In this document: positions 15,428 to 57,013 of the stretch, one piece after another
Position numbering within the stretch: position 1 is the stretch's first letter
How the letters are laid out: each line of letters starts with the position of its first letter
Source: a phage
Strand: one strand, 5' to 3'
DNA length: 64,000 nucleotides
Assembly (NCBI GenBank): GCA_025677605.1
Contig: GCA_025677605.1_4110.1
Program-made: the position numbers and the translations under genes
Notes under the pieces: model-generated
What the model saw: only the letters and a program-made list of their open reading frames with translations
Told to the model about the DNA's origin: nothing
Database searches by the model: none

Positions 15428-16573
15428 CTAAAAATCCTTTAGTACATCTTTGTAGTACTTTAGTAAAGTCTCTTTATAATCGACACTTTTGCCATTGTAC
15501 AACGCAAAGGCCAAGCCTTGTCGGTTCAATACATTAGGTAAATCTTGCTGAACCTTTTGAGCGAATTCCTTTCGCTCTAAGTGCTTGTATGCATGGACGA
15601 AGCTTTCTACCTCATCTTGTAAAGCATTATAGCACGAAAATACCAATTGTTCCATTCTTAATATCTTATCCATAGCATATGTATCAGTACTGAACAATTG
15701 TTTTAAGTCATCACTTGCACCAGTCAGTACAGCTTCATATAAATGGGAATCAATAAGAATGGAATCTTTTGTTAAATGCAAAGAGCAATACCAGTCAGTT
15801 TTGATTTTGCACATTGTACCATCTTTCATTATACACACAAAACCTTCAATGTCAAGCATAGAACGTACTTTATCGATTGACTCTTTAAATGTAGGCATAA
15901 TCGGGAATGTATGATGAATGTCATTACCTGTCATATTAGTACTGTACTGTGAAAGGCATGGAAACTTATCACGTAGTGCTTTACCGCATAACAACTCACC
16001 ACTAATACGATGACGAACGTTAAGAACAAATAACTGTTCCACCTGATATGGTAACACAATTCGATACTCTGGGCTTGTGTATTCCAGATTCACAGTATAG
16101 CCCAAACGGTCTGCTTCATCAATGTATTGATAGAGATTTTGGTTCTCGTTCAAAAGTCGAGTACTGTTAATAGCATGGTCAGAAGATAACGAAGTGTGTG
16201 ATTTGCAACGGATTTCACCATCATTATCACGGAATGTGCTGATGATAGATCCATCTAGCTTAGGCATTACAACCGCAATATCATCACAGGTAGTATCAGC
16301 ACTGAACATTGTGTACGGGTTTTCATATGCATTGAAGAACTTTTTCATTGTACGTGCTGCACAACGAATCATAATTCCGTTGGAATCAATTTCCCACATA
16401 GAACCACGAGTTTCTAGTGCATTTTTATTTGTGAAATCGGTATAAGATGCCAGACGATAGGTGAATACACGGTATAAACCACCACCAGGGCTTGTGTGAT
16501 CTATATAGAAAAATGCATCATTAGATTCACATAGTTCCATTAAATCATTGTATATTTCTCGTAAATTACTCAT
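15428..16573 (-). CDS. rnlA: RNA ligase 1
   Basis: N-terminus YNDLMELCESNDAFFY...LYRVFTYRLASYTDF...RGSMWEID and KxDG nucleotidyltransferase motif (VMPKLDGSII) resemble T4 Rnl1 as I recall it; 381 aa. Confidence 0.9.
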   Translation of the reverse strand: MSNLREIYNDLMELCESNDAFFYIDHTSPGGGLYRVFTYRLASYTDFTNKNALETRGSMWEIDSNGIMIRCAARTMKKFFNAYENPYTMFSADTTCDDIAVVMPKLDGSIISTFRDNDGEIRCKSHTSLSSDHAINSTRLLNENQNLYQYIDEADRLGYTVNLEYTSPEYRIVLPYQVEQLFVLNVRHRISGELLCGKALRDKFPCLSQYSTNMTGNDIHHTFPIMPTFKESIDKVRSMLDIEGFVCIMKDGTMCKIKTDWYCSLHLTKDSILIDSHLYEAVLTGASDDLKQLFSTDTYAMDKILRMEQLVFSCYNALQDEVESFVHAYKHLERKEFAQKVQQDLPNVLNRQGLAFALYNGKSVDYKETLLKYYKDVLKDF

Positions 16574-23257: not shown

Positions 23258-23793
23258 GGTTCTTTCCTCATGTATTTTATTACATCTTTAAAAAGTTTTA
23301 TTTTCAAGTCATTATCATCACCTGGTAGATAAGAACTGAAGCTTTCAAAATCATCACGCTTAGCAAAAGAACGCATTTCAGTTGAACTGTACTTGCTAAC
23401 GGTTCGGTCTATACCAGCTTGGATTGCTTTTATATTACGAAAATTATACAAGTTTCCATTGTATCTGTCAAGTACATTTTGAAAGTTTTCTATCCTGTCT
23501 GAACCACATATGAAAAGAACATCACTGTACTTACCATTCAATTCCTGCATAATATCAAAAAGATTATCTTCAGTACTGATGTTGTGTTGAATTCTTGGAT
23601 AGAAACCCTCAGTGTAATACATTTTCAATTCAGGTGGTAATGGATTCTTAATACAATCTTGTGTAGTACTAAGGTATATTTTTAAATCAGCATTGTATTG
23701 TTCTTTCATCGATACGGCTTTATCAAAAATTAACCCATGTCCCAAATGCACTGGATTTATACGTCCATACGTTACTATACAAGTGTCTTTCAT
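23254..23793 (-). CDS. cytidylyltransferase-family nucleotidyltransferase (NMNAT/PPAT-like)
   Basis: N-terminal GRINPVHLGH (HxGH) motif and C-terminal SSTEMR (ISSTxIR-like) motif. Confidence 0.65.
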   Translation of the reverse strand: MKDTCIVTYGRINPVHLGHGLIFDKAVSMKEQYNADLKIYLSTTQDCIKNPLPPELKMYYTEGFYPRIQHNISTEDNLFDIMQELNGKYSDVLFICGSDRIENFQNVLDRYNGNLYNFRNIKAIQAGIDRTVSKYSSTEMRSFAKRDDFESFSSYLPGDDNDLKIKLFKDVIKYMRKEP

Positions 23794-29061: not shown

Positions 29062-29083
29062 TTACATTTCCTCGGACAAAAAA

Positions 29084-38018: not shown

Positions 38019-38052
38019 ATGATATCCTCGGTTAAATAATATTAAAATAATA

Positions 38053-38087
38053 GCAAAGAAAAAAGCCAGAGTCAATACCCTGGCTTT
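38053..38087 (-). terminator. rho-independent terminator downstream of MCP gene
   Basis: Hairpin AAAGCCAG...CTGGCTTT with U-run on minus strand, directly after MCP stop codon. Confidence 0.6.
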
Positions 38088-38091
38088 AAAA

Positions 38092-39504
38092 TTATTTCAC
38101 GTTAAAAATCGAAGTGGCTTTTTGTAAAGCATGTACTTCAGACTGTTGATTGTCTACCATCATCATTGTGTCCTTGACATGCTCCGCATTTTGCTGTACT
38201 GAACGGTCCATCATATTAACACTCTCGGTAACCTGAAGGATTGCAATGCTTTGTTGTTCAGCCATTATAGCTAAATCATCAATGAACTGCAAGAGAGAAT
38301 CAACATTTTTTACAATAGAATCAATATCACTTGCAGTTTCGTTGATTTGTTCTATTCCTTGGTTGTTGTTTTTTACAGAGTTATCAACGATTTCTTTAAT
38401 TTCTTTACTACATGCATCACATTTCATTGCTAAGTTACGAACTTCCTGTGCAACAACAGAGAATCCACGTCCATGTTCACCCGCTTTAGCAGCCTCAATA
38501 CTGGCATTTAAAGAAAGAATATTAGTCTGGAAAGCAATAGTTTCTATATTTTTGAGTATAGCAACTATAGCATTAGAATCTTCTTTAATTCTATCCATCT
38601 GCTCTTTGCAATTATTAATACTTTCAATTGCATTAGTACTGGATTCTTTTGTAGTTTTAACCATACTTTTTGCAGTATTGGAGTTATCAGATGTATTTGC
38701 AGATGTAGCACTTAATTCTTCCATAGCAGCAGCGATTTGAGTAAGTGCCTGTCCTTGTGTTTCAGTTCTGAAAGCTAAATCATTACTTTTACTTTCGAGA
38801 TGATAGGAGTTGCTTTTCATTGACTGAACTGTAATTTGTACTTGTTCAATTGCCTCACGCATAGCTGATATTGTTTTACTAAAAGTCTGTGCAAATTCTG
38901 AGTTGAAATGATTATTTTGTATTTCTAAAGTAATATTGCCGTCTTCAGAATTCACCGAATGGGCAATTCGTTGAATTTCATCTGCTTCATTTGCATCTTT
39001 CTCCATAATATACGCAACGTACATCAGAACTATTGCCTGTACTACTACATATATTGCGTGCTCTATAATGTGCCATAACGAAATATGGTGAAAAGAAAAC
39101 ACGAATAATATTGGAATTCCAGCACCCTGTAACAATCCAAATAATAAATGATGTATAGCAATCAGTACTGAACCTGCTAATACACAACGCCAGTCACGCC
39201 ATACAATCAATAAACTTAAAAAGACAAAAACTGTAAAGTGCCATTCCACCATCCCTAAGCCAAGATGTATTAGTAACGCACTCCAGCACATCACATTTAT
39301 ACTTAACAACGTTCGAGTGAACGCATTACTTTCAACAAATAGTAAAGGAGTTAGCATTACTAATAATAAAACTGCACCGATTAGTGCAATAATAAAACTA
39401 CCATGAACAACACCGGAAACTAAAGTAACAGCAAATAAAGCCCCTATACAACATAGTACTAAATTATCGGCTTTTTTGCGTATATTTTCTAAATTACTTT
39501 TCAA
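38092..39504 (-). CDS. methyl-accepting chemotaxis protein-like transducer with multi-TM N-terminal domain
   Basis: C-terminal MCP signalling domain: highly conserved [25 protein letters not shown] block and [14 protein letters not shown]; ~6-7 hydrophobic helices in first 170 aa; track start codon is TTG so exact start uncertain. Confidence 0.8.
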
Positions 39505-40049
39505 CGTACTTCTCCATAATTTAAATTATCATCAATATATTTTTTTAATAACAAATGCATTTTCTCTAGTTCCTCTTGGCTTTTGGTAAGTAACTTGTCC
39601 ATAATTGTAATTTCATAATGATCTTCTAATAACCTAAGTAATTTATAACCCATTTCTAGCTTATTATAAGTTAATTGATCATATGACATAGCAGCCATGA
39701 ACATTTGTTCTTTGAAAGTGTTTGAATCAATTTTAGCTACAGCTAACTTCTCGTCATCTTCATAAGAATGTTTTACCAGTATCTTAGTGTAGCGTGATAC
39801 ATTATATAGACGAATTTCACTATCTCCGCGTAGAATTTCCATCTTGTATTCTTGTCTACGTTGTGTTGCATTAATGATCTTTACGACATAACCTAAACCA
39901 CTAATGAACAATGTAATATTAGAATATACTGATGGAGATTCTTTTGGGTTGATATTTAATTCACCTAACTCAAAATTAACAGTCTTATTATCAGGACTGT
40001 TTTTAAAAATATAAATCATGCATTCAATAATATTTACAATGCTATCCAT
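39501..40049 (-). CDS. FQ-family paralog (weak), hypothetical
   Basis: Degenerate motif [11 protein letters not shown]; overlaps MCP start by 4 nt. Confidence 0.45.
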
Positions 40050-40119
40050 AAAATACGCTCTCTTTTAAATAGGTTACAATATTCTAACACTCTACATTAC
40101 TAATGTCAACCTATAAACG

Positions 40120-40143
40120 AAAAAAGACCCATCAGGGTCTTTT
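40120..40143 (-). terminator. rho-independent terminator
   Basis: Hairpin AAAGACCC-ATCA-GGGTCTTT followed on minus strand by UUUUUUCG; overlaps stop of 40132..40683. Confidence 0.6.
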
Positions 40144-45112: not shown

Positions 45113-45168
45113 GATATGATCCTTTTCGTATTAGATGAAAAAGATTATATCATGCACAGAAGGAGGTG

Positions 45169-45705
45169 TCAAGATGGATTACGAACAAAATTCCAAATTA
45201 GATCGTAAAAAGTAAGGTCAACATAAAAAGGAGGGAAGTTATTCTGTTTAAGCCAAGAGAACATGAATTGTACACCAACTATGTACGGGTCGTCAACAGT
45301 ACTCATCTGAAAGAACAGTTCTTCGGTAAGTTCTTCTTCTATAAATGGTATAACAATGTCTGCCTCTTCATAAAAGAACTTTATTCTGTCATAGTCAGGT
45401 GAATAACTTAAAAAGCCACCGCTGTATTTTGGATCATATTCAGGGTCATTAAATTTGTTGATATTGAACATATCAACACTGTACCCGTCATCATCCAGAC
45501 CTCTTGAACGAATACTGAAGTAATCATAACTTGAATCAATAAATCTGTCAGATTTTACCCAAATAGAAGTCTCTCTGTTATTACAAATGAACTCATGGAT
45601 TTGCATAAGATCTTGAGCAGTACTGCGAGCGTGTTCAAAAGTGTCAACCTTTAAATGGTGAGTACCGTCCCAATCATCTTTCTCTATTCTGTCATAATCT
45701 AACAT
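45169..45705 (-). CDS. FQ-family paralog, hypothetical
   Basis: Motif EELFFQMSTVD. Confidence 0.55.
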   Translation of the reverse strand: MLDYDRIEKDDWDGTHHLKVDTFEHARSTAQDLMQIHEFICNNRETSIWVKSDRFIDSSYDYFSIRSRGLDDDGYSVDMFNINKFNDPEYDPKYSGGFLSYSPDYDRIKFFYEEADIVIPFIEEELTEELFFQMSTVDDPYIVGVQFMFSWLKQNNFPPFYVDLTFYDLIWNFVRNPS

Positions 45706-48140: not shown

Positions 48141-48706
48141 AGTATACCATCAACGAATACATCTTCGAATTCAAATGTTGAAGTATCAATGTATAAATTA
48201 CTTCTGAAGTTCATTTGCATCTCCATATATAGACGTAGAATCATGTACATGTCATCAGTACATGACAATTGAAACATCTGCTCTTCAAATGCGTTGTAAT
48301 TGTATTTCGGGATTTCAATAGTACTACTCTTTACTGTATCCCACCAGTTCTGAATACCAAAATATAATTCAGTACTTTTTCCTGTATAAAACAAATTCAT
48401 GATTTGATTTTTTTCATTCAAGTACAAACGGTTCGTGCCGCATACGGCAATACCAATACCAATAAGTGTAAGTGCAGGAAGACCGTCACGTAATACACGA
48501 CAACGATGAAATGTACCACCCTTATAGACTGACTGTAGGTAGTATCCTTCTTTAATAATGTCTCGTGATGGAATCAAACCAGTACTGCAATCCTTAAGCA
48601 AAGGAACTATAATGTTGATTTTACGAGATAATTCCTGCATTTCCTCTGCATTGTAAGCATCAATAATCATTTCATGTGCACCTTTTGAATTAATATTACT
48701 GTGCAT
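48137..48706 (-). CDS. FQ-family paralog, hypothetical
   Basis: Motif EEQMFQLSCTD. Confidence 0.55.
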   Translation of the reverse strand: MHSNINSKGAHEMIIDAYNAEEMQELSRKINIIVPLLKDCSTGLIPSRDIIKEGYYLQSVYKGGTFHRCRVLRDGLPALTLIGIGIAVCGTNRLYLNEKNQIMNLFYTGKSTELYFGIQNWWDTVKSSTIEIPKYNYNAFEEQMFQLSCTDDMYMILRLYMEMQMNFRSNLYIDTSTFEFEDVFVDGIL

Positions 48707-48742
48707 TGTAACACAGTACAGGCTCTTGTCAATAGCATGAAC

Positions 48743-56624: not shown

Positions 56625-57013
56625 TTAATAGGGTATTCCGTTTCATTCACTACATACGACATAATCCATCCGTAATGGATAGGATGATATTTGTCTGAAT
56701 CAGGAATAAAATATAAAGCTGTACTGGGATTATAACTGAAGAAATCCCTCTCGTCAAATGTTAATCTGGCTAACTTAATTTTCCTTGGAATTGCATGAGG
56801 ACGAACTGCATTCTTTACACAGAATATACCATCTTTGTATTTTGGTTCGATAACACCCAATGCACTCTGGATTAACTCCTGAAAGACTAAATTGATTTGT
56901 GCAAATGAATCCTTGTTGTTATGCATTTCGTGCCATAAATCTCGTCTTGCATTTAACATCATTATTACTGGTCTAAGATCCTGTACTATTGTTAGATTCT
57001 GCATTGTATTCAT
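56612..57013 (-). CDS. hypothetical protein (133 aa)
   Basis: Minus-strand ORF. Confidence 0.5.
   Translation of the reverse strand: MNTMQNLTIVQDLRPVIMMLNARRDLWHEMHNNKDSFAQINLVFQELIQSALGVIEPKYKDGIFCVKNAVRPHAIPRKIKLARLTFDERDFFSYNPSTALYFIPDSDKYHPIHYGWIMSYVVNETEYPIKWER

Follow-up and report, generated by a model that had tools for sequence, protein, structure and literature searches.

The stretch of DNA analysed here, referred to as the window, comprises 64,000 nucleotides of a phage genome (GenBank assembly GCA_025677605.1, contig GCA_025677605.1_4110.1) and carries on its minus strand a gene for a methyl-accepting chemotaxis protein (MCP). The coding sequence extends over 38092..39504 and specifies 470 amino acid residues plus a stop codon. 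Three parts can be distinguished in the protein, all encoded on the minus strand. The N-terminal part (38995..39504, residues 1-170) is a membrane sensor domain of six transmembrane (TM) helices, marked by the signature E87-x-H89-F90, H118-H119-x2-F122-x3-Q126, H149. It is followed by a linker of HAMP-like length and position (38899..38994, residues 171-202), in which an extension of the sixth helix (TM6) gives way to a connector. The C-terminal part (38095..38898, residues 203-470) is a kinase-control module, an antiparallel helical hairpin of class 36H delimited by the helices of an AlphaFold2 model and by alignment to the Escherichia coli receptor Tsr. The tip of this hairpin (38419..38541, residues 322-362) is the region of contact with CheA, CheW and the trimer partners. 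Taken together, the results show that the gene encodes an intact chemoreceptor long resident in the phage, and that an ancestor in the Asteriusvirus lineage took it from an enterobacterial relative of the host.

The window is 98.6-99% identical in DNA comparison to Escherichia phage A4 (ON286972), a jumbo, strictly lytic phage of 355 kilobases (kb) that belongs to Asteriusvirus (121Q/PBECO4 group) and for whose isolation E. coli LF82 was used. Phage A4 has been described as a relative of PBECO4 (PMC9355613). In its GenBank record, the gene A4_379 has the same extent as the open reading frame (ORF) in the window and already carries the label 'methyl-accepting chemotaxis protein'. Phage-borne MCPs are already known in databases. 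An earlier note on this DNA had taken the T4 gene set as its frame of reference, which proves to be wrong because the window matches the PBECO4 relative A4. Accordingly, a T4-like phage was rejected as the source, given the 99% identity to an Asteriusvirus of 355 kb.

The signalling half is that of a proper MCP. The Pfam model MCPsignal (PF00015) matches residues 281-434 with 127.5 bits (E 6.3e-37) against a gathering cut-off of 34.6 bits, and Tsr chains in the PDB match at E 6e-36, which bears out the MCP signalling domain that the earlier note had recognised in the 470-residue ORF. With the NCBIfam models Tcp, Tar, Tap and Tsr, E values of 1e-41 to 1e-50 were obtained; every one of these matches falls far short of the equivalog cut-off of its model. 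From residue 203 onward, the numbering of the protein runs 48 residues behind that of Tsr over the whole aligned part (Tsr 251-517), without net insertion or deletion and with 32% identity. Because of this constant offset it is placed in the 36H class, to which all five E. coli receptors (Tsr, Tar, Trg, Tap, Aer) belong. In the AlphaFold2 monomer, the hairpin helices span residues 203-340 and 342-464 with a predicted local distance difference test (pLDDT) score of ~90. The tip corresponds to Tsr 370-410 with 73% identity, and shares with it F373, I377, N381, E385, G390, E391, G393, R394, G395, F396, V398, E402 and R404 (Tsr numbering). The motif that had first drawn attention to the gene (residues 335-359) is this tip, and since both profile search and alignment give a proper MCP match, the objection that the conserved block might fail to align with MCP signalling domains falls away.

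Seen against Tsr and Tar of E. coli (PDB 6s1k, 8c5v, 3zx6, 1qu7), the phage protein thus has the kinase-control module without net change in length together with the trimer and CheA/CheW contacts, and a consensus methylation site equivalent to Tsr E310/Q311 is also present. In contrast, the sensor of Tsr and Tar consists of two TM helices and a periplasmic four-helix bundle, whereas that of the phage protein is a bundle of six TM helices. In the full-length model, the TM6 helix continues to residue 184 and is followed by a connector (residues 185-202) and the long hairpin, a layout like that of HAMP; the linker region aligns weakly with the HAMP residues 216-264 of Tsr.

The sensor half was modelled by AlphaFold2 from the N-terminal 178 residues with an alignment of 20 sequences (pLDDT 91, predicted template modelling score 0.86). 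Exactly six TM helices are predicted, at residues 4-33, 37-56, 61-81, 86-102, 105-127 and 143-177. Since the longest loop has just 15 residues, no periplasmic domain is present in the model, in agreement with the previous estimate of about six to seven TM helices and no periplasmic ligand-binding domain. The domain has no name or model in Pfam, NCBIfam or PHROG, and these collections likewise supplied no name for the genes next to the MCP gene. An exhaustive HMMER search of 1.84 billion cluster representatives with a profile of the six-helix domain returned 5,816 matches at E <= 1e-3, 503 of them at E <= 1e-30; the cluster of the phage lineage itself (P0001, 99% identical) matches at E 8.5e-55. 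MCPsignal was fused to the domain in all ten matches of varied length that were tested, in some with HAMP or PAS in between, and one further match (P0274), found among the 13 matches of a profile word-index search, has HisKA instead of MCPsignal. A large unnamed family of six-helix membrane sensors is thereby brought to light, with thousands of clusters, an invariant His/Glu signature and a predicted fold like that of adenylyl cyclase anchors.

Across 130 representatives of this family, G84, H89, F90, F93, H119, H149 and V153 are invariant, and the residues conserved in at least 92% include D13, L77, I79, E87, L96, R103, A112, A116, H118, F122 and Q126. The phage protein has all of these residues, save for the conservative replacement A112S. 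With the N-terminus in the cytoplasm, the predicted helix boundaries would put six residues into that half of the bundle which faces the periplasm: E87 and H89 at the start of TM4, H118, H119 and Q126 at the end of TM5, and H149 at the start of TM6. Such a Glu/His/Gln cluster would suit the sensing of a metal ion, of haem or of protons alike.

Some structural counterparts of this sensor are known. In a fold search, the predicted domain resembled the six-helix anchors of membrane adenylyl cyclases and of a diguanylate cyclase, namely human AC9 (6r3q) and AC5 (8sl3), Mycobacterium tuberculosis Rv1625c (7yzi) and Pseudomonas aeruginosa ImcA (8wcn). All of these share the six-helix bundle and a TM6 that continues as a cytoplasmic helix to the output domain; they differ from the phage protein, compared here through its predicted model, in sequence (10-13% identity) and in output, which in the phage protein is the MCP hairpin. 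In architecture alone, HtrVIII of Halobacterium salinarum is also similar. This six-TM aerotaxis transducer, for which haem binding by conserved intramembrane histidines has been proposed (Brooun et al. 1998, as summarised in PMC13401364), likewise leads from six TM segments straight into an MCP module without an extracellular domain. However, HtrVIII is archaeal and of another length class.

The gene does not stand alone. Its TTG start codon overlaps by four nucleotides the stop of an upstream gene of 182 codons (39501..40049, minus strand), and a Shine-Dalgarno sequence GGAG (39512..39515, minus strand) lies seven nucleotides upstream of the start, in the sequence ...ATGGAGAAGTACGTTG. The 182-residue protein corresponds to phrog_36809 (unknown function); no Pfam family reached the curated cut-off with it, and outside the A4 lineage the protein has no relative. 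The two genes are co-transcribed and translationally coupled. Reading along the minus strand, the unit begins after a terminator-like hairpin that closes the preceding transcription unit (40122..40143; stem of 9 base pairs with 4 G-C pairs, then a T-run). There follow a putative sigma-70-like promoter (40081..40109; TTGACA-17-TAGAAT with upstream TG, 11 of 12 consensus matches), the 182-codon gene, the MCP gene and finally a second terminator-like hairpin (38062..38087; 11 pairs, then TTTTCTTT). Since this last hairpin sits at 38087-38062, the interval 38053-39504 first assigned to the gene takes in the coding sequence and its own terminator. A promoter-like site for the next gene (38047..38075, minus strand; TTGACT-17-TATTAT with TG, 10 of 12 matches) overlaps the MCP terminator. 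The earlier note had described the MCP gene as bracketed by terminators and as a self-contained moron. Both hairpins are indeed found, but the pair encloses two genes rather than one. In the same way, the promoter-like site, the terminators and the absence of the gene from other Asteriusvirus genomes agree with a moron, whereas the unit comprises two genes.

Near-consensus sites of the form TTGAC-N17-19-TANAAT occur seven times in the window, all on the coding (minus) strand, at 15828-15855, 23443-23471, 40081-40109, 45144-45172, 45267-45296, 48705-48732 and 56729-56757. The expected number is 1.8, and none of 100 shuffles reached seven. This enrichment is consistent with an early region read by the host RNA polymerase, and the MCP unit would then be among the genes transcribed early by that enzyme.

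The composition of the MCP gene is that of the phage. Its guanine-cytosine (GC) content is 34.5%, with 25% at third codon positions (GC3), compared to 33.7% GC for the whole window. Furthermore, the same context of the gene is present in three independent assemblies, namely the window (with an identical protein in Logan ERR7425836), the GenBank record of A4 and Logan SRR30543657. When the gene is compared between these three genomes, 14-21 codons differ synonymously and 4-5 non-synonymously, which corresponds to a ratio of non-synonymous to synonymous change (pN/pS) of 0.05-0.095. Against the A4 copy there are 21 synonymous and 4 non-synonymous differences (pN/pS 0.05), and against the third genome (Logan SRR30543657) the ratio is 0.07 to about 0.10. 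In the six-helix part, every pair of genomes differs by 5-7 synonymous and not a single non-synonymous change. The gene is therefore under strong purifying selection, which is tightest on the sensor half.

The closest full-length relatives are bacterial MCPs of ~483 residues with 36-40% identity over 94-99% coverage, from Enterobacter soli, E. wuhouensis, E. chuandaensis, Pseudocitrobacter corydidari, Siccibacter turicensis and Pantoea. MCPs of Cupriavidus and Paraburkholderia come next (~31% identity). No named or characterised member of this proteobacterial subfamily was found among the database matches. In a neighbour-joining tree, the phage protein, with a long branch of its own, is the sister of the Enterobacter/Pantoea/Siccibacter clade, which supplies the donor lineage that the earlier note had proposed to seek along with the heptad class. 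The long branch and the phage-like values of GC and GC3 both back a long residence in the phage. With the bacterial subfamily, the phage protein is collinear over 99% of its length and shares the six TM helices, the invariant Glu/His/Gln signature, the linker and the 36H module. It differs in belonging to a lytic phage, in a GC content of 34%, in its long branch, in being 13 residues shorter at the N-terminus, and in the hinge and tip replacements considered below; the bacterial genes, as seen for the homologues in E. soli and Cupriavidus, are lone chromosomal genes. When the DNA coding for the six-helix domain in Enterobacter was compared by blastn with 5,426 complete E. coli genomes, nothing was matched; the sensitivity of this search ends at ~65-70% identity. 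In E. coli itself, the sensors of all five receptors are of a different build.

The reading favoured here, held tentatively and with somewhat less than even confidence, is that the protein is a working receptor that would couple a membrane-proximal signal to the host CheA and so change the taxis of the infected cell. It is favoured because the length and tip are compatible with the host array, all signature residues of the sensor are kept, and the purifying selection is strong and tightest on the sensor. According to this proposal, the host RNA polymerase would transcribe the gene early, together with the 182-codon gene, from the sigma-70-like promoter. The protein would insert into the inner membrane and dimerise, and its hairpin could join mixed trimers of dimers and bind the host CheA and CheW, since it has the 36H length of Tsr, Tar, Trg, Tap and Aer and a tip that hardly differs from theirs. 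The infected cell would thereby gain an input that is not supplied by any E. coli receptor whose architecture is known. This input would be read by the Glu/His/Gln cluster, with a metal ion, haem or a redox signal, and pH as candidates, and would shift the activity of CheA and hence the bias between running and tumbling during the infection cycle. Adaptation would probably be poor, because the NWETF tether and the glycine hinge are lacking and a single consensus methylation site is left, and the receptor may be biased toward one output state. The presumed gain for the phage is that the infected cell would be steered to, or held in, surroundings in which phages are produced or passed on more readily. 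The wider claim, that a strictly lytic jumbo phage uses its own receptor to rewire the navigation of infected cells for as long as the infection lasts, with attraction to or repulsion by a signal for which uninfected E. coli has no receptor of this type, is offered with more reserve, as a possibility that would sooner be doubted than assumed.

Several observations weigh against a working receptor. With the consensus [ASTG]2-x2-[EQ]2-x2-[ASTG]2, a single strict methylation site is found (262/E263, equivalent to Tsr E310/Q311), whereas Tsr has four. The C-terminal NWETF pentapeptide and its linker are absent, as the protein ends with ...ATSIFNVK at the position of Tsr 517-518. When 32 family members were searched with Pfam, none gave a HAMP match at E <= 1. 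At the tip, Tsr R388 is replaced by lysine, a residue found here in one of 131 family members. Moreover, the glycine hinge is lost: Tsr G340, G341 and G439 correspond to A292, I293 and A391 in the phage protein, while GGG is found in most of its nearest enterobacterial relatives. Normal switching between the on and off states is therefore doubtful, because hinge replacements in Tsr impair or abolish chemotaxis and the kinase-OFF state is bent at the hinge (PMC6606802). On the side of the phage, the gene was not found in 33 other phage genomes, mostly Asteriusvirus (121Q, PBECO4, slurp01 and others). Among cultured phages only A4 has it, which answers the question of its presence in related phages. 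Since other Asteriusvirus genomes lack the gene, it is dispensable for the genus. Additionally, the paper on A4 is silent on chemotaxis (PMC9355613), and the literature searched yielded no study of what a phage MCP does.

Some of these points could also mean that the protein jams the array. As the main rival, unlikely but serious, it may be proposed that the tip binds the host CheA and CheW with a locked output, and that, given strong early expression of the protein, host chemotaxis is overridden or dismantled whatever the stimulus, so that the infected cell swims smoothly or tumbles constantly. The cell might thereby be kept in place or dispersed, or phages that need flagellar rotation might be blocked. 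The hinge sequence AIA in place of the GGG of the nearest homologues, the single methylation site, the missing NWETF tail, the conserved tip and the strong sigma-70-like promoter would all fit such a role. However, the tip alone would suffice for it, and yet the six-helix domain keeps every residue that is invariant in the family and shows no amino acid change among three phage genomes despite the synonymous changes in each pair. The hinge argument is also blunted: all three glycines are lost in 14 of the 131 family members (13 without the phage's own P0001 copy), so the family tolerates this loss. Furthermore, the AT-rich phage copy is poor in glycine over its whole length (1.9% vs 5.6%), and for this reason the loss may reflect compositional drift. 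As for methylation, the nearest homologues likewise have just 0-2 consensus sites. A pure decoy of CheW and CheA, in which the tip alone would matter, is less probable, since no other part of the gene is as constrained as the sensor half.

A role outside chemotaxis is rather improbable. The protein might sense the state of the membrane or periplasm, act as a scaffold in the membrane or for polar localisation, or work jointly with the 182-residue protein; selection would then have acted on something other than the control of CheA. The translational coupling to this phage-specific protein speaks for it, as does the use of the six-helix fold with other outputs in adenylyl cyclases, ImcA and the HisKA protein; the loss of the hinge, the R388K replacement and the few methylation sites would suggest relaxed constraint on classical signalling. 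It is hard to explain without CheA, CheW and the trimer partners, however, that the most Tsr-like part of the protein is exactly the tip that contacts them, and the 36H length, important for fitting into the array, is kept without net change. The 182-residue neighbour, moreover, is merely one of many similar paralogues in the surrounding array of genes.

Still less probable is a neutral passenger, i.e., a horizontally acquired host gene without a role in infection that was kept by chance in one sub-lineage. Of the Asteriusvirus genomes in the collection, only those of the A4 lineage have the gene, and it is located in a hypervariable region of lineage-specific small genes, as would be expected of a passenger. 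The low pN/pS across the three genomes, the full amelioration to phage composition, the intact reading frame and key motifs despite ~60% divergence from the donor clade, and the gene's own expression signals all speak against it. Lastly, host DNA misassembled into the phage contig, the failure that the earlier note had itself envisaged, is excluded by the phage-like composition, the overlap of the start with the stop of the upstream phage gene and the identical context in the GenBank A4 record and two independent assemblies from the SRA, and the closest bacterial protein is merely 40% identical.

Other large phages also carry MCPs, and PHROG 8572 is an entry for phage-borne MCPs. Vibrio phage vB_VmeM-Yong XC31 (MK308674, 290 kb) encodes a protein of 610 residues with the order dCache_1-HAMP-MCPsignal (QAX96201.1, L088:1187-3019), and Microcystis phage MaAM05 (MW495066, 274 kb) one of 508 residues with the order protoglobin-MCPsignal, similar to HemAT (WMU93215.1, L089:1796-3322). 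Both are full-length MCPs in cultured jumbo phages and are labelled only 'hypothetical protein'. Additionally, MCP, CheR and CheY have been listed in Nitrosospira phages (bioRxiv 10.64898/2026.05.02.722434). Unlike the gene in the window, the other phage MCPs have dCache_1 plus HAMP or protoglobin as sensors, and their signalling domains match at 33-37% identity over ~30% of the query; these are independent acquisitions. The capture of MCPs with different sensors thus seems to recur in large phages. A scan of IMG/VR gave 179 MCP-like loci (viral status as catalogued), none of them close to the phage protein; the matches kept had 25-41% identity and were nearly all limited to the signalling domain. 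A search of the viral structures in BFVD returned nothing at E <= 1e-3, and there was no MCP among the matches listed, which were to a lipase, to tail fibre and SMC proteins and to nucleases.

If the wider claim of rewired navigation is true, it would mean that a virus manipulates the behaviour of a bacterium through the chemotaxis pathway, and the independent captures of MCPs with dCache or globin sensors in other jumbo phages would then make this a recurrent strategy of phages with large genomes. The gene also provides a clean case for an old dispute. An enrichment of viromes in chemotaxis genes, once highlighted as unexpected, was later ascribed to cellular contamination (PMC3877843); here, a complete MCP is present in a cultured lytic coliphage, with phage-like composition, under strong purifying selection and in three independent genomes. 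Whether the phage affects the swimming of its host can be answered quickly, because E. coli is the best-understood chemotaxis system and the assays exist.

The MCP gene lies among small genes, where the early region is hypervariable and specific to the lineage. The 33 other phage genomes share only ~3 kb of a 22-kb test stretch, with DNA alignment confined to about 29-32 kb of the window. The two genes flanking the MCP gene gave no tblastn match outside A4, and dating of the insertion by synteny failed. Within the window, 108 of the 114 ORFs of at least 90 residues lie on the minus strand. Diverged paralogous small genes surround the MCP gene, as had been noticed before: 14 ORFs form one BLASTP-linked paralogue family between 40680 and 58946, and smaller families of 2-3 members occur elsewhere in the window. 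The direct neighbours of the MCP gene are not linked by BLAST to these families; a motif resembling F-Q-x-S...Y is common to them by eye. Finally, a stretch of 657 base pairs (bp) in phage A4, which contains the putative HNH endonuclease A4_397, has just 16 bp in its place in the window (29062-29077). The two phages, 99% identical in other respects, thus seem to differ in whether a homing endonuclease is present.

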